A stretch of DNA of 64,000 nt from Dehalococcoidia bacterium (lineage in GTDB: Bacteria; Chloroflexota; Dehalococcoidia; Lucifugimonadales; QGNO01), in assembly GCA_965261825.1 (NCBI GenBank), contig OZ253484.1, forward strand, positions 289,347-353,346, given 5' to 3'. A program made the translations under genes and the position numbers. The notes under the pieces were generated by a model. It saw only the letters and a list, made by a program, of their open reading frames with translations. It was not told where the DNA came from and did not search any database. Below, piece by piece: positions 463 through 62,171 of the stretch (position 1 is its first letter; each line of letters begins with the position of its first letter).

Positions 463-2313
463 TCACTTCTCAATGTTGAGTATCGCCAGAAACGCTTCCT
501 GCGGGATTTCCACCTGTCCAATTCTCTTCATCCGCTTCTTGCCCTCGGCCTGCTTCTCTAACAGCTTGCGCTTCCGAGTTACATCGCCGCCGTAGCATTT
601 TGCCAGTACGTTCTTTCTCTGAGCCCTGATAGTCTCTCTGGCGATGATCCTGCTCCCCATGCTTGCCTGTATGGAGACTTCAAACAGTTGGCGTGGTATC
701 AGGTCTTTCAGTCTGGCTATCAGTGCCCTACCCTGCTGCTGTGCTTTGTCCACGTGAACGATTAGCGACAGCGCATCCACCGACTGTCCGTTCACTAGTA
801 TGTCCAGTTTGACCAGGTTGGCCGGCCTGTAATCCGCCGGCGTGTAGTCAAGGGAAGCGTATCCCTGTGACCTGGACTTCAACTGGTCGTAGAAGTCCAT
901 CAATATCTCACCCAGAGGCGCGGTGAATTCCAACTGCACCCTGGAGTCGGAGGATGGCGCCCCGCCATCCGTTCGCGCGCCGTTGTGGCTGGGCCCGCTC
1001 TGCAGGTACTCCATGCGCTGGAAGTCGCCCCGCCGGCTCGTCACCAAATCTATCATCGCTCCTATGAAGCGACTCGGAGTGATGATGGTCAGATTGAGCC
1101 ATGGTTCCAGTATCTCCTCTATCTGCTGGCGCGGCGGCATCTGTGATGGATTCTGGACTCCTATCTCATTGCCATCCGCCAGCACTACTTTGTGGGCCAC
1201 GCTGGGCGCCGTGGTTAGCAAGTCTATCCCGTACTCCCGTTCAAGCCGTTCTTGCACTATATCCATGTGCAGGAGACCCAGGAAGCCGCAGCGGAATCCG
1301 AATCCCAGCGCGACGCTGCTTTCCGCTTGAAAAGTCAAAGCGGCGTCATTGAGCTGCAGCTTCTCCAGAGCCTCCCCCAGCTGCTTGTAGCTTTCACCGT
1401 CGGAGGGATACAGGCCAGCGAAGACCATTGGCTTCAATGGCTGATAGCCGGTGAGGGCTTCTTCCGCCTGCTTGGCCTGCAGGGTTATTGTGTCGCCAAC
1501 GGGCACCTGTCTGACGTTCTTCAGACCGGTGGCTATATACCCCACTTCACCAGTTGCCAGTCCAGGCAGCTTGGTTAAGGTGGGTCGAAACGTTCCCACC
1601 TCCAACACCTCCGCTTCGTATCCTGCCCCCATGAGCTTGAAGCGGTTCCGCTCTTTCAGCGAACCGTCAAAGACTCTTACGTAGGCCACCACGCCTTTGT
1701 ACTGGTCGTACGCCGAATCGAAAACCAGTGCCCTCAGCGGTTCATGAGTTCCCCCCGTTGGGGCCGGCACCTGCTCCACTACTGCATTCAGCACGCTGTC
1801 TATGCCCAGCCCCTCTTTAGCCGATATGAATAGCATTTCGTCTCTCTTGAAGCCAAAGGTATGCTCTAGCTCCTGGGCTACCACATCCGGCTGGGCCACC
1901 GGCAAATCGACCTTGTTGATCACGGGTATTAGGGTGAGGTTGCGTTCCAGGGCAATGTAGACGTTGGCTATGGTCTGGGCCTGCACGCCCTGGCTGGCGT
2001 CGACCACCAGGAGAGCGCCTTCACAGGCGCGCAGGCTGCGTGACACCTCATAGCTGAAGTCCACGTGTCCCGGGGTGTCTATCAGGTTCAGTTGGTACTC
2101 ATTGCCGTCGCTGTGCCGGTACATGAGGCGCACCGCTTGTGCTTTGATTGTGATCCCGCGTTCCCGTTCCAAGTCCATCTGATCAAGGAACTGGTCCATC
2201 ATCTCACGGTCTGAGACGGTGCGTGTAATCTCCAGCAGCCGGTCCGCCAAGGTAGACTTGCCGTGGTCAATGTGTGCGATTATGCAGAAATTGCGGATGA
2301 AACCCGGTTCCAT
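463..2313 (-). CDS. lepA: Translation elongation factor 4 (LepA)
   Basis: 616 aa. N-terminal GTPase motifs [31 protein letters not shown] and NKVDL. LepA-specific C-terminal region ending ...[26 protein letters not shown]. Confidence 0.97.
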
Positions 2314-5100: not shown

Positions 5101-6108
5101 ATGGACTTGCGCAAGATTGGAGAGTTTGGGCTTATCCGCCGGCTGGAAGCAATGGCCAAGCAGGAGGGAGTCGCTGCTTCCCGCGACCAAGCCTTTGCCC
5201 TCGTCGTCGGTATTGGCGATGACGCCGCTGCTTGGCGCATTGATACCGCGGGCCTGATTGAGCTCTCCACCACGGATACCATGGTGGAAGAGGTGCATTT
5301 TACCAGGAGCACCACTCCCTGGCAGGACGTGGGATGGAAGGCCATGGCCTCCAACCTCAGCGATCTGGCTGCCATGGGAGGCTCTCCCACCTATGCCCTG
5401 GTTACCCTTGGCCTGCCGGGCAACGTTTTGGTTGAGGATGTTGACGCTGCGTTTCAAGGCGTTGTCCGGGCCTGCAAGACCTACGGCGCGGTCATTGCCG
5501 GCGGGGACGTTGTTTCCTCACCGTTCTTCTTCATTACCATTGCCCTGAATGGCCTGGTTCGCGGGCAACCCATGCTGCGTTCCGCGGCTGTACCCGGCGA
5601 TGTCATAGGGGTTACAGGCCATTTGGGATTGTCCCGCGGCGGGCTGGAGCTGATGATGCGCCATTCCAGGGTGGATTCGGATGCCGCCCGGGAGCTTGTC
5701 CGGGCGCACCGTCATCCCCTACCCAGGCTGCAGGAAGGCCACGTCCTTCTGGAGGAGAGGGTGCGTGCCGCAATGGACGTCAGCGATGGTCTGGTGGACG
5801 ACCTGAAGAAGATGATGCTTGCCAGCAGTACGGCCGCCCGTATCTTCTCCAAGGATATAGCCATTCATCCCGCCCTTGGGCAAACTTTCCCCGGGGATGC
5901 TCTTCGCCTGGCCCTTGCCGGAGGTGAAGAGTACGAGCTGCTCTTCACTGCTTCCGGCGAGGTGTTTCAACGCGTAAAGGAACGTCTACCTTCCGTCTCC
6001 ATCATTGGTGAAGTCACCGGTGAAAAGTCGGGAGAGGTCATCGTCTATGATGAAAACGGAAGTCCTATATTGGACGTAGGGCCCGGCTGGGATCACTTGC
6101 ATAGATGA
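5101..6108 (+). CDS. thiL: Thiamine-monophosphate kinase
   Basis: 335 aa. IGEFGLIRRL, GIGDDAAAW, TTDTMVEEVHF, SNLSDLAAMGG and AGGEEYELLFT are typical ThiL/AIR-synthase-related motifs. Confidence 0.9.
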   Translation: MDLRKIGEFGLIRRLEAMAKQEGVAASRDQAFALVVGIGDDAAAWRIDTAGLIELSTTDTMVEEVHFTRSTTPWQDVGWKAMASNLSDLAAMGGSPTYALVTLGLPGNVLVEDVDAAFQGVVRACKTYGAVIAGGDVVSSPFFFITIALNGLVRGQPMLRSAAVPGDVIGVTGHLGLSRGGLELMMRHSRVDSDAARELVRAHRHPLPRLQEGHVLLEERVRAAMDVSDGLVDDLKKMMLASSTAARIFSKDIAIHPALGQTFPGDALRLALAGGEEYELLFTASGEVFQRVKERLPSVSIIGEVTGEKSGEVIVYDENGSPILDVGPGWDHLHR

Positions 6109-15043: not shown

Positions 15044-15718
15044 ATGTTTTCCTCCGCAATCAAAAAGCGGTGCGTTGCCCTTGCAGCGCCTCTTTTGCTG
15101 TTCAGCATAGCCTGCACTACCGAAGTGGGCACTACACCGACTACAGTCGCGCCTACGGATACGCCAACTCCAACCGTTACTCCACCCTCATTAATTCCTA
15201 CGAACACGCCAACCTCAGGCGTGCCAACCTCTCCGCCGCCGCCTACGAACACTCCGACGCCAATGCCTGCACCTCCGGCGGAAACGGGAAACCGGGTTGG
15301 CAACATGGCGCCTGATTTCACTCTGACAGAGGTATCCACGGGCCAGCCCGTCCAGTTGGCCGAGTTGACAGCACAGGGGCGTCCTGTAGTCCTCTTCTTC
15401 TTCACCACCTGGTGACCGACTTGCCGCACCGAGTTACGGATGCTAAAGGATGTTTACCCGGAATACCAGGAGTCCGTGGATTTCTATGCACTGGGCATCG
15501 ATCCAACAGAAGGTCTGAGTGCCCTGGTCAGGTTCAGAGATGGACAGGACCACCCGTGGCCGGTGGCCAAGGCTCCGGCTGCCATGCTTCCGCAGTACAA
15601 TGTCTTGCAGCAGTCCACCAAGGTGGCCATAGATAGCAATGGAGTAATAGTGTTCCGTGAAGGTTACGGCGTAGAGGACACTGAGACCTGGGTCCGGCTG
15701 TTCCGTGAGCTTTCCTAG
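15044..15718 (+). CDS. Thioredoxin-fold thiol:disulfide oxidoreductase lipoprotein (TlpA/ResA-like), predicted selenoprotein with in-frame UGA (Sec) at 15413..15415
   Basis: Track ORFs 15023..15415 and 15440..15718 are in the same frame. Reading through gives ...RPVVLFFFTTW-U-PTCRTELRMLKDVYPEYQ..., so the TGA sits at the first Cys of the WCxxC redox motif. The N-terminus MFSSAIKKRCVALAAPLLLFSIAC has a lipobox, followed by a Thr/Pro-rich linker. Confidence 0.8.
15426..15443 (+). promoter_or_regulatory. Candidate bacterial SECIS hairpin (copy 1)
   Basis: GCACCGAGUUACGGAUGC begins 10 nt after the UGA. GCA/UGC plus CCG/CGG pair, with a bulged A and apical loop AGUUA. Possible outer pairs are CUU/AAG. 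It is nearly identical in copy 2. Confidence 0.5.
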
Positions 15719-15729
15719 GTGTAGCGCCT

Positions 15730-16557
15730 ATGTTTTTCTCAACAAGAAAGCGATCTGTTGTCCTTGCAGCGCCTCTTTTGCTGTTCAGCATAGCCTGCAC
15801 TAGCGAGGTGGGCACTACACCGACTCCAATCGCGCCTACAGTTACTCCAACATCGGTCGCGCCAGCGGATACGCCAACTCCAACTACTGTCCCCCCCACA
15901 GCTACCTCCACACTTACACCCACGCTGACGCTTCAGGATCAGCTACTTCAGGAGCGTGTAGTACTTCAGGAGCTTGTAGCTGCAAGAGCCACGGCTACGG
16001 CTCTGACGCCGACACCAACGCCAACGCCAACTGTTGCCGTACCTGTGCAGTGGCAACTCCAACCCCTACAACCTTTGCCTACGAACACGCCAACGCCAAT
16101 GGCTGGATCTCCGGCGGAAACAGGGAACCGGGTTGGCAACCTGGCGCCTGATTTTACCCTGACAGAGGTGTCCACGGGCCAGCCCGTTCAGTTGGCCCAA
16201 CTGACCGAACAGGGACGCCCCGTAGTCATCTACTTCTTCACCACTTGGTGACCGTATTGCCGCACCGAGTTACGGTTGCTAAAGGACATCTACCCTGAAT
16301 ACCAGGACTCTGTGGATTTATACGCGGTGAACATAGATCTAGGTGAAGACCTAAGTTCCATAGTCAGGTTTAGAGATGAACAGGACCATCCCTGGCCGGT
16401 GGCGCAGGCGCCTGCTGAAATGCTTCCGCTGTACAATCCCATCGCGGTGCCATTCAAGGTAGCCATAGATAGGAATGGAATAGTAGCGTTCCGAGGAAAA
16501 GGGGCAGATCCACCTGAGACCTTGCACCACGTATTCCAGGAGCTTTCCCAGGTGTAG
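15730..16557 (+). CDS. Thioredoxin-fold thiol:disulfide oxidoreductase lipoprotein (TlpA/ResA-like), predicted selenoprotein with in-frame UGA (Sec) at 16249..16251
   Basis: Track ORFs 15730..16251 and 16276..16557 are in frame. Read-through gives ...RPVVIYFFTTW-U-PYCRTELRLLKDIYPEYQ.... Lipoprotein signal MFFSTRKRSVVLAAPLLLFSIAC. The TP-rich linker is longer than in copy 1. The gene starts 11 nt after the copy 1 stop. Confidence 0.8.
16262..16279 (+). promoter_or_regulatory. Candidate bacterial SECIS hairpin (copy 2)
   Basis: GCACCGAGUUACGGUUGC sits at the same 10-nt distance from the UGA and has the same predicted pairs as copy 1. The only change is A to U in the bulge. Confidence 0.5.
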
Positions 16558-57972: not shown

Positions 57973-59655
57973 GTGCTGACCTTCCGGCGGGCCGACGGGC
58001 GGGAGGTCTCCCTGGAGGAGTTCCCCCTGTCCCAGGGACTGAGCACGGGGGAGACGGTGCGGGCCGAGGAGATCGTCCTCCAGGCCCCCGACGGGCGGAG
58101 CGTCACCACCCTGATCAACGCCACGTCCATCCGCTCCGAGGAGGGCGAGGTCGAGTCGGTGGTCGTGACCATGCAGGACATGACGCCGATGGAGGAGTTG
58201 GAGCGGCTGCGGGCCGAGTTCCTGGGCATGGTGAGCCACGAGCTGAGGACGCCGCTGGCCGCCATCAAGGGCTCAGCCGCCACGCTGACGGAGGCGGCCT
58301 CCGACCTAGACCCCGCCGAGATGCTCCAGTTCTTTCGCATCATCGGCGAGCAGGCCGACTACATGCGCGACCTGATCGGCGACCTGCTCGACGTGGCGCG
58401 CATCGAGACGGGCGAGCTGTCGGTGGCCCCCGCGCCTGCGGACATGGCGACCCTGGTGGACGAGGCCAGGAGCAGGTTCCAGAGCGGAGGGGGCAGGAGC
58501 AACCTCCGCATCGACCTGCCCCCGGAGCTGCCGCTGGTCATGGCGGACGGGCGCCGCATCATCCAGGTGCTGAACAACCTCCTCACCAACGCGGCCGGGC
58601 ACTCCCACGAGGCGTCCGCCATCGGGGTGTCCGCCGTGCGGGAGGGCTACCACGTGGCGGTCTCGGTCACGGACGAGGGCAGAGGGATAGCCGCCGAGCG
58701 GCTGCCGCACCTGTTTCGGAAGTTCTCCCGCATCGACGGCGAGGACCGGAGACGGGACATCGCGGGGTCGGGCCTGGGCCTCGCCATCTGCAAGGGGATA
58801 GTGGAGGCCCACGGGGGCCGGATATGGGCCGAGAGCGACGGGCCGGGCCTGGGGGCGCGGTTCACCTTCACCATTCCGGTGGCCCAGGGCGCCGCTATCG
58901 GGCCCACCCATCTCCCGGTGCGCTCTAGGCGGACGGAGAGAGAACGGGAGCGCATCCTCGCGGTGGACGACGACCCGCAGACGCTGCGGTACGTCCGGGA
59001 CGCGCTCGCCAGGGCGGGCTACGCGCCGATCGTGACCGGCGACCCGCAGGAGGCGACGAGCCTCGTCCGGGCGAACGACCCCCACCTGGTGCTGCTGGAC
59101 CTGATGCTGCCGGGGACCGACGGCATCGAGCTGATGGGGGATATCCTCGATATGGCGGACGTGCCGGTCATCTTCCTGTCGGCCTACGGCCAGGAGGAGA
59201 ACATCGCCAGGGCTTTCGAGAATGGAGCCGACGACTACGTGGTCAAGCCCTTCTCGCCGACGGAGCTTGTGGCGAGGATCAAGGCGGCCCTGCGCAAGCG
59301 GGAAGCGCCCGAATGGGCCGAGCCGTCGGAACCCTACGTGTTTGGAGAGCTGACCATCGACTACGCCGAGCGCCGCGTGACGCTGGCCGGGCGTCCCGTG
59401 CAGCTGACCGCCATCGAGTACGGGCTGCTCTTCGAGCTATCGGCCAACGCCGGCCGCGTGATGACCTACGACCGGCTGCTGCAACGGGTCTGGGGCCTGC
59501 GGGGCTCCGGGGACTCGCGGCGGGTGCGCACCGCCGCGAAGCAGCTCCGCCGCAAGCTGGGCGACGACGCCAACAACCCCACCTACATCCTCAACGAACC
59601 CCGCGTCGGCTACCGGATGCCGAGGGGAGAGACGCCGGGAGCGGAGGAATCGTGA
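57973..59655 (+). CDS. Fused sensor kinase / OmpR-type response regulator (PAS fragment-HisKA-HATPase-REC-winged helix), probably 5'-truncated
   Basis: H-box FLGMVSHELRTPLAAI; HATPase NLLTNAAGHS, DEGRGI, GSGLGLAICK. REC ILAVDDDP, LVLLDLMLPGTDG, DYVVKPF. wHTH LTAIEYGLLFEL...PRVGYRM. The frame stays open upstream to about 57841 without a start, and PAS-like sequence begins abruptly near 57915, where GC content jumps. Confidence 0.8.
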   Translation: MLTFRRADGREVSLEEFPLSQGLSTGETVRAEEIVLQAPDGRSVTTLINATSIRSEEGEVESVVVTMQDMTPMEELERLRAEFLGMVSHELRTPLAAIKGSAATLTEAASDLDPAEMLQFFRIIGEQADYMRDLIGDLLDVARIETGELSVAPAPADMATLVDEARSRFQSGGGRSNLRIDLPPELPLVMADGRRIIQVLNNLLTNAAGHSHEASAIGVSAVREGYHVAVSVTDEGRGIAAERLPHLFRKFSRIDGEDRRRDIAGSGLGLAICKGIVEAHGGRIWAESDGPGLGARFTFTIPVAQGAAIGPTHLPVRSRRTERERERILAVDDDPQTLRYVRDALARAGYAPIVTGDPQEATSLVRANDPHLVLLDLMLPGTDGIELMGDILDMADVPVIFLSAYGQEENIARAFENGADDYVVKPFSPTELVARIKAALRKREAPEWAEPSEPYVFGELTIDYAERRVTLAGRPVQLTAIEYGLLFELSANAGRVMTYDRLLQRVWGLRGSGDSRRVRTAAKQLRRKLGDDANNPTYILNEPRVGYRMPRGETPGAEES

Positions 59656-59746
59656 GTGGCCGAGCCTGTCCTCTCCGTTCGTGGCAAGTCCTCGCCCGGC
59701 GGGTAGGGGTGAGGCCCCTAACTACACCGCCAGCTTGAACCTCAAC

Positions 59747-59778
59747 GTAAAGGTTCTTGATTTTATCCAGTTGGGTGG
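59747..59778. repeat. 32-bp repeat core, copy C
   Basis: gtaaaggttcttgattttatccagttgggtgg. It abuts the point where replication-relaxation-like sequence ends (59780). Confidence 0.85.
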
Positions 59779-59779
59779 G

Positions 59780-61266
59780 CCAGTAGTAGCCCGTATAAGT
59801 GCTCAGGCGGGCGATGACTCCCCTGGGGTGGCGGGCGCGAAGCTCGTACTCAAGATAGAACGGCACGTGAAGGCCGCCGGCGACCAGGTGACCTACGGCG
59901 TCGGGTGCGATGGCGGACTCTCCCCAGTTGTAGGCCCGGTCGGACCTGGCGGTGGGGACCGTCCACTGGAGTTCGCTCGACGAAGCTTCCCTAGTCTCAG
60001 CCTCAAGCGCCGACAGGAACCACGTGATGCCGTCTGCGTGCTTCGTCTGCCGCGCCCACGTGTCGATGCGGTGGCCGACGTGCCGCCTGCGGCCCTGGCG
60101 GTCGGTGGTGAGGGCTGTGCTCCAGATGCCTCGCGTGGTGGGGAGCTGGGCGCGGTCCCTGTGGGTGACGTAGCGAATGCCCTCGGCGGACAACGCGAAG
60201 CGGGTGTCGCCTCGTTGTCCTCGTCGCTCGACAAGGCTCCAGGTATCGACCAGGGTGCGCATCATCTGGCTTACGCGCCCCTCGGAGACGCCGAGCCAGC
60301 GGGCAAGGTGCTCACGGGGGATCATCAGGTGGTCGGTCACGAGGTCGAGCGTCCGCTTCTCCGAGGGGCTGATGCCGAAGGCCGGCGCAGCCTGCACCAG
60401 CCGCTCGGGACGGGGCAGCGAAGCCCGCTTCCGTTCCGGCGACGCGGTGCGAAGCCCTCCTCCGGGGCTGCCGTGGGCGCTCACGTCCTTCAGCGTGTGG
60501 TACGAGCTGCCGAACACCCACGAGGGTTCACACCAGAGGCGAAGGTCCCGTCTTTCGAGCCCGTCCCTGGTTTCCACGGCGACGAAGCAGTCATCGAGGT
60601 TCAAGTTTATGCAGAACCTCGTCGTCAGCCTCTCCTCCCAGACGCTCGGCGTCAGGACCAGGGTGGCATCTGGGCGTCGGGTGTAGTCGTACCCCGCGAT
60701 TGCTCTCAGCCGGTCGTAGAGAGACCGGCGCCGTAGGGCCAGACCCTGGCGCACCACGCCGAAGCTGCGGCCGTCGTGGAGGGTGATGGTGGCGTCGAAG
60801 CGGCCCCTGCGGTGGAACTCCACGTGTGAACGAAGGAATCGGATGCCGGGGGACAGTGAGGCGGCGAGACGGTAGACGGCGGCCACAGCGTCCATCCGGC
60901 GGATGAGCAGCGCCAGCCACTCCCTGGACACAGGGTAGGCGCGTACGAAGTCCGAGGGCGTGTCGAAGCCGAGCATCCCGGCGGCCTGTCTGATGCCCTG
61001 GGCTGTCAGGTAGTATCGCTGGCTCGACGGAGGTGGGCGGTTCCGTGGCCCTCCCTCCCCGCGTTGCCGTGGCCCTCCCTCCCCGCGTTGCCGTGGGCCA
61101 ACGCCAACAGGCCGGTCAAAGCGCGGTGGACTGTCGCGTGCGGCTCCCCAAGGATGCCCGCCAGCTCCGCCGAATCAACGAATGGCATACGGCTGAGGGA
61201 ATCGAGTAGCCGTTGGTCGGAAGGAGCCACGTGTCGAGCGTAGCAAAAGAGGGGCGCGCTGTGCAT
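59780..61266 (-). pseudogene. Replication-relaxation family protein (mobile-element type), frameshifted and 3'-truncated
   Basis: Track ORFs 61006..61266 and 59591..60976 join into one family-like sequence (...HGTAHL / PSSQRYYLTAQGIRQAAGMLGFDTPSDFVRAYPVSREWL...) only if one base is restored near 61029..61033. Family-like sequence stops after ...RLSTYTGYYW at the 32-bp core. There is also an in-frame 24-bp duplication. Confidence 0.7.
61043..61090. repeat. Perfect 24-bp tandem duplication inside the replication-relaxation pseudogene
   Basis: ccgtggccctccctccccgcgttg occurs twice back to back (61043..61066 and 61067..61090). It encodes the duplicated HGNAGREG. Confidence 0.95.
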
Positions 61267-61811
61267 CCGTCACAGGGCAGTGCCGGTGTGTGGGAAGGCA
61301 GCGGACGCCGCCGAGTTCATGGCCGAGGAGCCGGTGAAGCCGAAGGGCCGGGGCCGCAAGCCTCAGCCCGCAGCCACGTCCCTGTTCGAGTGGGAGCTCG
61401 CCCTTGAGCAGGATCGGGAGCGGGAGGCGGAGCCGGTCGGCGCGGGGCGCTAGGCCCCCCTGCACGTCCATCTGTGCGGCCCTTTTCTGTTGCCCATTTT
61501 CCCGTGGGGCATTGATGCCTCTTCTTCGCCCTCTTCTGCGTCAGATGGTCCATCTGGGGAAGCGGCAGGCATGGAAGCCAATAAGAGGAGACTCACTCTG
61601 GACCTGGCCTCCACCCTTCAACGTTGGCTGAAGGTCTGGCGGTCAAGGGCGTCAGCATGCTCCGGAGCGGTCAAGCCGCCGTCGACCGGGAGGCCGCCGA
61701 AGGGAGAGGCTGATACCCCGATTCTCGGCAGCGCCATGCGCCATAGCCAACACGCGCTGGGAGCGCCTCCAGGACGATATGCTGTCCATCCCCGGCTGAG
61801 GGCGCGTGGCT

Positions 61812-62171
61812 TTAGCAGAAGGGCAGGCCGCCAAGGTCAGAGGAGGTCGACTGGTCTTCCAGGCTGCTTGGCACGCACCCGCTTAAGTCGTTGCCGCTGA
61901 GGTCCAGCCATACCAGGTTGGAGAGGCTGCCCAGCTCCGCCGGTATCTCCCCGCTCTGCTCCTGTATCTGCTCAATGAGAGACGCGACGGTGGCCTCATC
62001 CACGAGGGCGGGTGCGCCCGCGGGCCCTGGAGATCCGGCTGGTCCGGGTGCGCCTGAGGAGCCCTGCGGCCCGGGAGGCCCCTGCCCCCCAGCGGGCCCG
62101 GCAGCTCCCTGGCAGGCAGCAATTGACAGGATAAGAGCGATGATCGGGATTACTGTGATTAGGGCGCGCAT
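61812..62171 (-). CDS. Small lipoprotein with collagen-like G-x-y repeats and one plant-type LRR unit
   Basis: 119 aa. Lipobox LSIAAC, then GAAGPAGGQGPPGPQGSSGAPGPAGSPGPAGAP, then IPAELGSLSNLVWLDLSGNDLSGCVPSSL. Confidence 0.65.
   Translation of the reverse strand: MRALITVIPIIALILSIAACQGAAGPAGGQGPPGPQGSSGAPGPAGSPGPAGAPALVDEATVASLIEQIQEQSGEIPAELGSLSNLVWLDLSGNDLSGCVPSSLEDQSTSSDLGGLPFC

Follow-up and report, generated by a model that had tools for sequence, protein, structure and literature searches.

Two adjacent genes in this stretch of Dehalococcoidia DNA are each interrupted by an in-frame UGA, and a short hairpin can be drawn just downstream of both. The question is whether these hairpins are bacterial SECIS elements (bSECIS), at which the UGA would be read as selenocysteine (Sec), or whether the conserved nucleotides have another cause: selection on the encoded peptide, a Sec-independent read-through signal or a genuine stop codon between gene fragments. 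We examined the genes, the predicted folds and a large set of relatives of this locus; the window, throughout, is the whole 64-kb stretch of DNA that was analysed.

Tandem thioredoxin-like genes are each interrupted by one UGA

A single in-frame TGA interrupts each of two tandem paralogs (region 15044–16557, forward strand). The genes and their UGA codons are as follows.

15044–15718, forward strand: gene copy 1, 224 residues with the UGA read through; thioredoxin-fold (AhpC/TSA, Redoxin) protein, motif W-U-P-T-C
15730–16557, forward strand: gene copy 2, 275 residues with the UGA read through; tandem paralog of copy 1, motif W-U-P-Y-C
15413–15415, forward strand: in-frame UGA of copy 1, candidate Sec codon from the sequence, at the first (N-terminal) Cys position of W-C-x-x-C
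16249–16251, forward strand: in-frame UGA of copy 2, candidate Sec codon from the sequence, the read-through translation and the homologue alignment

The start of copy 1 (ATG 15044) was chosen by alignment with the N-terminal fragments of homologues. From this start, copy 1 opens with an N-terminal signal peptide that contains a lipobox-like FSIAC; a Thr/Pro-rich linker then leads into a thioredoxin-fold domain. Copy 2 repeats this architecture, its N-terminal signal again being hydrophobic and carrying FSIAC. Both products are probably lipoproteins, lipid-anchored and exported.

Both copies scored above the Pfam gathering thresholds for AhpC-TSA (62.2 bits for copy 1, residues 85–202, and 61.2 bits for copy 2; cut-off 26) and Redoxin (52.3 and 51.7 bits, respectively; cut-off 26.6), which places them in the AhpC/TSA-Redoxin superfamily. 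The nearest named relatives by profile match were ResA, DsbE, TlpA and StoA, and the best matches among solved structures were 2ls5 and the ResA structure 4nmu. All NCBIfam equivalog models remained below their curated cut-offs (ResA, 55–60 versus 170 bits; DsbE, 31–35 versus 123 bits; TlpA, 21–25 versus 230 bits), so that, as judged by profile scores, both proteins are related to the ResA, DsbE and TlpA families yet lie outside them. The two genes are predicted to encode tandem paralogous thioredoxin-fold thiol-disulfide oxidoreductases of the ResA/TlpA/DsbE type. No cytochrome c maturation gene or CcdA neighbour was found in the 64-kb window.

The UGA of copy 1 aligned with the Cys of WCGVC or WCKPC in solved ResA-like structures, and likewise with a Cys in the database proteins P0018 and P0054 and in the Cys-form loci L047–L055. 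As the UGA is aligned with the first Cys of W-C-x-x-C, the redox motif becomes W-U-P-T/Y-C. Both marks of a Sec/Cys pair are present: the UGA stands where homologues have a conserved catalytic Cys, and sequence conservation continues downstream of it. Reassignment of the code is excluded, because TGA is the normal stop of 10 of the 22 long ORFs in the window.

A short hairpin lies 10 nt downstream of each UGA

The initial annotation had placed a hairpin 10 nt after both UGA codons, and the sequences and positions that it quoted were exact.

15426–15443, forward strand: candidate bSECIS hairpin of copy 1; GCACCG (15426–15431), loop AGUUA (15432–15436), CGG-A-UGC (15437–15443) with A15440 bulged
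16262–16279, forward strand: candidate bSECIS hairpin of copy 2; GCACCG (16262–16267), loop AGUUA (16268–16272), CGG-U-UGC (16273–16279) with U16276 or U16277 bulged

The hairpin is 18 nt long in both copies and is separated from the UGA by a 10-nt spacer (CCGACTTGCC in copy 1). As had been noted, the bulge is the only position inside it at which the copies differ (A15440 versus T16276).

The bSECISearch consensus model (PMC13188914, Fig. 2A) describes an apical loop of 3–9 nt on an upper stem of 4–16 bp, with G at loop position 1 or 2, usually followed by G or U, a distance of 16–37 nt from UGA to apical loop and a minimum free energy (MFE) of −7.5 kcal/mol or lower (PMC13188914). In both copies the hairpin begins 11 nt past the UGA (15413 and 16249), and the reading frame runs on through the UGA, as in the model. 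The loop of 5 nt and the stem of 6 bp with a 1-nt 3′ bulge lie within the model ranges, and the loop has G at position 2 followed by U. The distance from UGA to loop (10-nt spacer plus 6-nt 5′ arm) is exactly 16 nt, the lower limit of the range. The proposal that spacing and loop composition are in the bSECIS range is thus borne out against this model (PMC13188914), by the 16 nt to the loop and by a 5-nt loop with G-U. Overall, the hairpins agree with the published model on three of its four criteria, and are borderline on the fourth, free energy.

When folded in isolation, both 18-mers adopted the proposed structure, a GCA/UGC plus CCG/CGG stem with a single bulge and an AGUUA loop, at −5.0 kcal/mol (z = −2.5 and −1.95). 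Evaluated in its 39-nt context, the hairpin reached −6.4 kcal/mol, above the −7.5 threshold of the model. The 48-nt fold of copy 1 reached −8.3 kcal/mol, but only by counting non-conserved outer pairs: the pairs (C)UU/AA(G), suggested as a possible extension of the stem, do form in the predicted fold of copy 1, but the codons involved are variable, and relatives do not conserve these pairs. Where the stem of a relative has no bulge, the energy was −9.2 to −10.5 kcal/mol, below the threshold of the model. A defined hairpin thus formed at both sites in the isolated 18-mers; the 48-nt contexts folded no better than shuffled sequences (z = −0.46 and −0.50), and the MFE structure of copy 2 differs. 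In its 48- and 66-nt contexts, the ViennaRNA MFE structure of copy 2 is an alternative pairing of UGACCGUA with UACGGUUG; this alternative needs a UAU codon that is specific to copy 2 and is not conserved among relatives.

Comparison of the two paralogs had no discriminating power. The hairpin had been thought to be conserved beyond the surrounding paralog sequence, a view that we could not sustain: it has one mismatch in 18 nt, and 15% of the 18-nt windows of the alignment equal it. An Rfam scan of the whole window at gathering threshold returned two tRNAs only, and a scan of 15350–16350 with E values up to 10 returned no SECIS family, the two matches (a snoRNA model and a Pseudomonas sRNA model, both E = 10) being attributable to chance. 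Taken alone, the window makes a weak case for a SECIS; it is the relatives that carry the argument, and with them included the signal greatly exceeds chance.

The UGA and the reading frame are kept across a large family

In a protein search, nearly all database relatives were annotated as two fragments split at the UGA (92–94-aa C-terminal pieces and separate N-terminal pieces), and only two full-length Cys forms were found. A scan of species-representative genomes yielded 44 loci, 43 of them from 36 Dehalococcoidia metagenome-assembled genomes (MAGs); in these 43 loci, all 62 sites with the family signature had TGA, and at many loci the gene occurred two or three times in tandem. From metagenomes, a further scan contributed marine relatives of the Sec as well as the Cys form. 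In total, about 90 homologous sites (36 Dehalococcoidia MAGs plus marine metagenomes) have UGA at the first Cys of W-C-x-x-C. The family with the AGUUR loop would thus have expanded widely, its members being predicted exported thioredoxin-like selenoproteins from sponge-associated and marine sources, encoded by two to three genes in tandem. At one locus (L093), the gene adjoining the family member is a UGA-split selenoprotein gene of the UGSC family (Pfam PF24696), with a stem-loop of its own whose GUG loop starts 19 nt after the UGA.

We built a covariance model (R1) on the hairpin region. Across the 93 sources searched it detected 88 sites of the family, and it scored copy 1 at 55 bits (E = 3.8 × 10−13) and copy 2 at 54.5 bits. 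Run over the window with filters off, it returned the two known sites and no others. Apart from the two known sites, scans of the window for further selenoprotein genes, by UGA context and by coding potential, gave nothing but gene junctions and spurious out-of-frame matches; the coding-potential scan missed both known sites too, and is thus insensitive as a negative.

The hairpin is under selection at the RNA level

Flanking synonymous sites are variable among the relatives, indicating ample divergence, while those inside the hairpin are frozen. Arg at residue +4 downstream of the UGA is CGC in 60/60 sequences and Arg +8 is CGG in 60/61, whereas the equally invariant Arg −11 uses all six codons. 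Glu +6 is always GAG (60/60), compared with 33 GAG and 20 GAA at Glu +16. Leu +7 is encoded exclusively by UUG or UUA, other Leu columns being mostly CUN; UUA makes up 2% of the Leu codons in the long ORFs of the window. This synonymous freezing is limited to the hairpin.

Pairing was assessed in 52 distinct sequences, and then in 70 distinct Sec-form sequences once the metagenome members had been added; these sequences are phylogenetically related, so that fewer independent events underlie the counts than their size suggests. All six pairs could form in 51 of the 52, compared with 7.6% of trials in which the same peptides were re-coded synonymously with the codon usage of the window. In the set of 70, 68 sequences had 6/6 pairs and two had 5/6, composed as follows.

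Pair 1: G-C 63, G.U 6, U.G 1
Pair 2: C-G 62, U-A 4, A-U 1, U.G 2, G.U 1
Pair 3: U-A 36, G-C 16, A-U 13, G.U 5
Pair 4: C-G 67, A-U 1, C.A mismatch 2
Pair 5: C-G 61, U-A 7, U.G 2
Pair 6: G-C 70

Both sides had changed with pairing retained at four of the six pairs. Examples are the stems GCGACG/CGUCGU (L061), GGGCUG/CAGCUC (L064), GUGCUG/CGGCAC (L067) and GCUCUG/CAGAGC (L032, L034 and L040); in L006:2549, where Arg is replaced by Leu (UUA), the stem is rebuilt as UAUCCG/CGGAUG. The covariation score was 0.181, against 0.047 in shuffled alignments, and 0.281 against 0.093 in the larger alignment, with 0/500 shuffles scoring as high in either case. In the larger alignment, 89% of cells were paired for the proposed structure, compared with 32–48% for slid registers. 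RNAalifold recovered the inner four pairs independently from a gapless alignment (A4); from an alignment derived from the covariance model (A5) it returned no structure, probably owing to gap columns from two spurious matches. In the loop, G-U-U at positions 2–4 is invariant (70/70), and AGUUR is present in 68/70. Together, these data show that selection acts directly on the RNA of the hairpin throughout the family.

Cys-containing relatives lack the hairpin and its peptide

The Cys forms L047–L049, L052, L054 and L055 are 42–47% identical to the query, as are many Sec forms. At the site of the hairpin they encode CRREMTQL, CTRELADL or CFKELAEL, and both the hairpin and the RxELR peptide are absent from them. 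As these forms lie at a similar distance without R-x-E-L-R, the fold does not require that peptide. One Cys form, L045 (which encodes P0018), keeps CRTELR; its codons have drifted to CGU ACC GAG UUG CGG CGA, two of the six pairs are lost and it scores 15 bits with the covariance model, compared with 21–65 bits for Sec forms. L045 would fit a recent Sec-to-Cys conversion.

The frozen synonymous sites, the covariation and the Cys forms without hairpin or RxELR therefore indicate that the RNA constrains the protein, and not the reverse. The RNA requirement dictates the C-R-x-E-L-R peptide downstream of the UGA. It also imposes a coupling between residues +5 and +9, where Thr occurs with Leu or Met, Ser with Ser and Ala with Arg.

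The candidate SECIS reading had been staked beforehand on three points, and these came out in its favour: the fold at the two sites (for the isolated hairpins), compensatory stem changes in homologues that keep the UGA (6/6 pairs in 68/70, the partners changing together) and conservation beyond the amino-acid constraint of CRTELR (frozen synonymous sites, 7.6% of re-codings, Cys forms without the hairpin).

Other explanations for the conserved hairpin

Could the nucleotides be conserved only because the peptide C-R-T-E-L-R is under selection, with an RNA structure that has no function? The peptide is indeed strongly conserved among the 70 Sec forms (CRSELR in 32, CRAELR in 14 and CRTELR in 12), and hairpin conservation between the paralogs of the window is unexceptional. 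Peptide selection does not, however, account for synonymous positions that are invariant here only, for a stem that arises in just 7.6% of re-codings or for the exclusive use of UUG and the rare UUA at Leu +7. Nor does it account for non-synonymous changes that compensate each other across the stem, such as GAC with CGU in L061, GCC with CGC in many sequences and UCU or GCU with CAG in L032, L034, L040, L064, L068 and L073; and the Cys-form relatives do without the peptide altogether. We regard this explanation as effectively refuted, with a negligible chance of being right.

A functional hairpin might still act independently of SelB and Sec, by stimulating read-through or recoding of the UGA with, for example, near-cognate Trp or Cys inserted. 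Read-through can in general be promoted by structures downstream of stop codons, and neither the 64-kb window nor the fetched loci yielded any Sec machinery. Against this, the UGA falls exactly at the nucleophilic Cys of CxxC, the classical Sec/Cys pair; both the G-U in the loop and the distance of 16 nt agree with the SelB-type model; Dehalococcoidia are documented as selenoprotein-rich; and the neighbouring UGSC selenoprotein gene in the relative L093 has the same kind of element. We consider SelB-independent read-through very unlikely. That the UGA is a true stop, the loci being split or decaying genes and the hairpin an intergenic regulatory or stability element, deserves almost no credence. 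It would agree with gene callers, which give two fragments everywhere, and with the AUG 27 nt after the UGA in copy 1, but the split would fall inside one thioredoxin fold and within its active-site motif. Frame and protein sequence are conserved across the UGA at about 90 sites (36 MAGs and marine metagenomes), and many copies have no restart codon, with Leu, Ser or Arg replacing Met after the hairpin.

The hairpins as candidate selenocysteine insertion elements

We therefore favour, with a probability of roughly 90%, the reading of both hairpins as functional bSECIS elements within the coding region of a UxxC thiol-disulfide oxidoreductase. The SelB-type mechanism of Sec insertion is established in E. 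coli and Moorella. By analogy with these, a SelB·GTP·Sec-tRNA(Sec) complex would bind the apical-loop G-U through the C-terminal winged-helix domain of SelB. Binding would coincide with the arrival of the UGA in the A site, the moment at which the hairpin would lie at the ribosomal mRNA entrance; SelB would then deliver Sec in competition with release factor 2, and the outcome would be a U-x-x-C redox centre.

Neither the fetched loci nor the 64-kb window contained a selA, selB, selD or tRNA-Sec gene; SelA was not found among the large ORFs of the window, and its tRNAs are Leu and Lys only. Two proteins of the window were considered as candidates and rejected: the 616-aa GTPase at 463–2313, as SelB, is LepA, and the AIRS-family protein at 5101–6108, as SelD, is ThiL. 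From the literature on the class, we infer that the host genome encodes Sec machinery. BSepDB ranks two MAGs of the Dehalococcoidia (49 and 46 selenoprotein genes) among the ten richest bacterial selenoproteomes (PMC13326102). The UGSC-family selenoprotein gene at L093, with its own stem-loop, is a second observation in favour of such machinery.

Comparison with known elements and protein families

The SECIS elements of E. coli fdhF and fdnG and of Moorella thermoacetica fdhA are SelB-binding hairpins. Like them, the element described here is a hairpin inside the gene, directly 3′ of the Sec UGA, with a small apical loop containing the G-U that is essential in those systems and with one bulged stem base, and its geometry is that of the minimal E. 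coli element, a 17–18-nt upper stem-loop starting about 11 nt after the UGA. In primary sequence it is unrelated to the E. coli and Moorella elements, with a loop of AGUUR in place of (A)GGUC(U). Most family members have no bulge, and where it occurs in the window it is on the 3′ strand, whereas the bulged U of E. coli lies on the 5′ strand and is important. The element also differs in having no conserved lower stem and in its 16-nt spacing at the lower limit of the model.

Predicted UxxC selenoprotein families include Prx-like thiol:disulfide oxidoreductases (PF00578) and thiol-disulfide isomerase-like proteins (TlpA-like, cd02966) (PMC13188914, Table 1). The two proteins of the window resemble these families, as listed there, in the thioredoxin/AhpC-TSA/Redoxin fold, in candidate Sec in place of the first Cys of CxxC and in the existence of Cys homologues; they differ in being lipoprotein-like with long Thr/Pro linkers and in occurring, in Dehalococcoidia, as tandem arrays of two to three paralogs. 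With ResA, TlpA, DsbE/CcmG and StoA they share the W-C-x-x-C motif and a membrane-anchored extracytoplasmic topology, but they would carry Sec instead of Cys, and the window has no cytochrome c maturation or CcdA gene.

The locus is a clean but ordinary example of a known mechanism; the UxxC selenoprotein type is known, and the class is known to be selenoprotein-rich. What stands out is the minimal size of the element, its lower-limit spacing and its strict conservation across a large paralogous expansion. It is possible, though we put it forward only tentatively and with the odds against it, that the family uses a natural minimal SECIS: a 17–18-nt hairpin without a conserved lower stem, at the shortest spacing of the model and with a near-invariant AGUUR loop, which imposes both R-x-E-L-R and the coupling of +5 with +9. 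Were this so, the family would offer a clean example from nature of protein co-variation driven by RNA structure; and if the SelB of Dehalococcoidia does recognise so small an element with unusual specificity, the hairpin could serve as a compact, portable Sec-insertion tag.

The known picture of selenocysteine insertion is unchanged by these findings. For the class, they provide a family-specific SECIS consensus, UGA-N10-GNNCYG-AGUUR-CRGNNC, and a covariance model with which such genes can be sought in MAGs. The family is an unusually clear natural case of an RNA element in a coding region constraining the protein sequence. For this organism, each gene would otherwise be mis-annotated as two fragments, and reading the UGA as Sec would restore two intact extracytoplasmic U-x-x-C oxidoreductases.

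Tandem arrays of Sec thioredoxin-like genes

Sec-containing thioredoxin-like genes were found in many Dehalococcoidia MAGs as arrays of two or three tandem paralogs, including the following:

L017, positions 1804, 2474 and 3130: tandem array
L024, positions 1740, 2529 and 3130: tandem array
L031, positions 1793, 2564 and 3130: tandem array
window 15044-16557: tandem array (copies 1 and 2)

Each lipoprotein-like gene in the window carries one Thr/Pro-rich low-complexity linker of TPTPTPT repeats (window 15130-15290 and 15820-16110), both of them long and of unequal length. An additional segment of ~50 residues, containing LQDQLLQERVVLQELVAAR, is present only in copy 2 of the pair and is shared with several homologues.

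Other genes in the window

Two genes resembling Sec machinery were assigned elsewhere. The AIR-synthase-family protein at window 5101-6108 (+) was rejected as SelD and is ThiL, scoring 263.6 bits against the ThiL model TIGR01379 and 76 bits against the SelD model (cut-off of 125). The 616-aa translational GTPase at window 463-2313 (-) has a SelB-like length but is LepA. G+C rises to 0.67-0.69 within window 58000-62000, compared with 0.53-0.62 elsewhere in the window; a Pfam search with the 461-aa ORF at 59591-60976 (-) returned no match.

Divergent relatives

Only one Cys form, P0018 (L045:412-450), retained the CRTELR peptide. The hairpin codons have drifted, with 2 of the 6 pairs gone, and L045 looks like a recent Sec-to-Cys conversion. 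Its source is a 788-bp contig (assembly GCA_044233465.1), and the first 40 N-terminal residues of P0018, as called, appear unrelated to the thioredoxin-like family. A paralog at L002:2161-2199, with its downstream peptide altered to CRTEFWLLEDVYLEY, its loop-closing pair changed to G.U and an AGUUU loop, may be a decaying copy.

Probable selenoproteins of the lineage

Adjoining a thioredoxin-like family member in one locus, L093, is a further gene, with the same genes found in L094:

L093:10387-10938 (-): UGSC-family gene (Pfam PF24696)

Its two annotated fragments form, in both loci, a single ORF with an in-frame UGA (AIGS-U-GSC), and in L093 a stem-loop lies 3' of the UGA, its GUG apical loop beginning 19 nt past that codon. 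Predicted to be a selenoprotein, this gene adds a second type to the lineage that carries the thioredoxin-like family, and its SECIS geometry is similar.

Within the thioredoxin-like arrays, the Sec-flanking residues vary from paralog to paralog (W-U-P, F-U-P/G, T-U-T and S-U-S), which suggests that the tandem paralogs belong to a family of exported redox proteins that has diversified.
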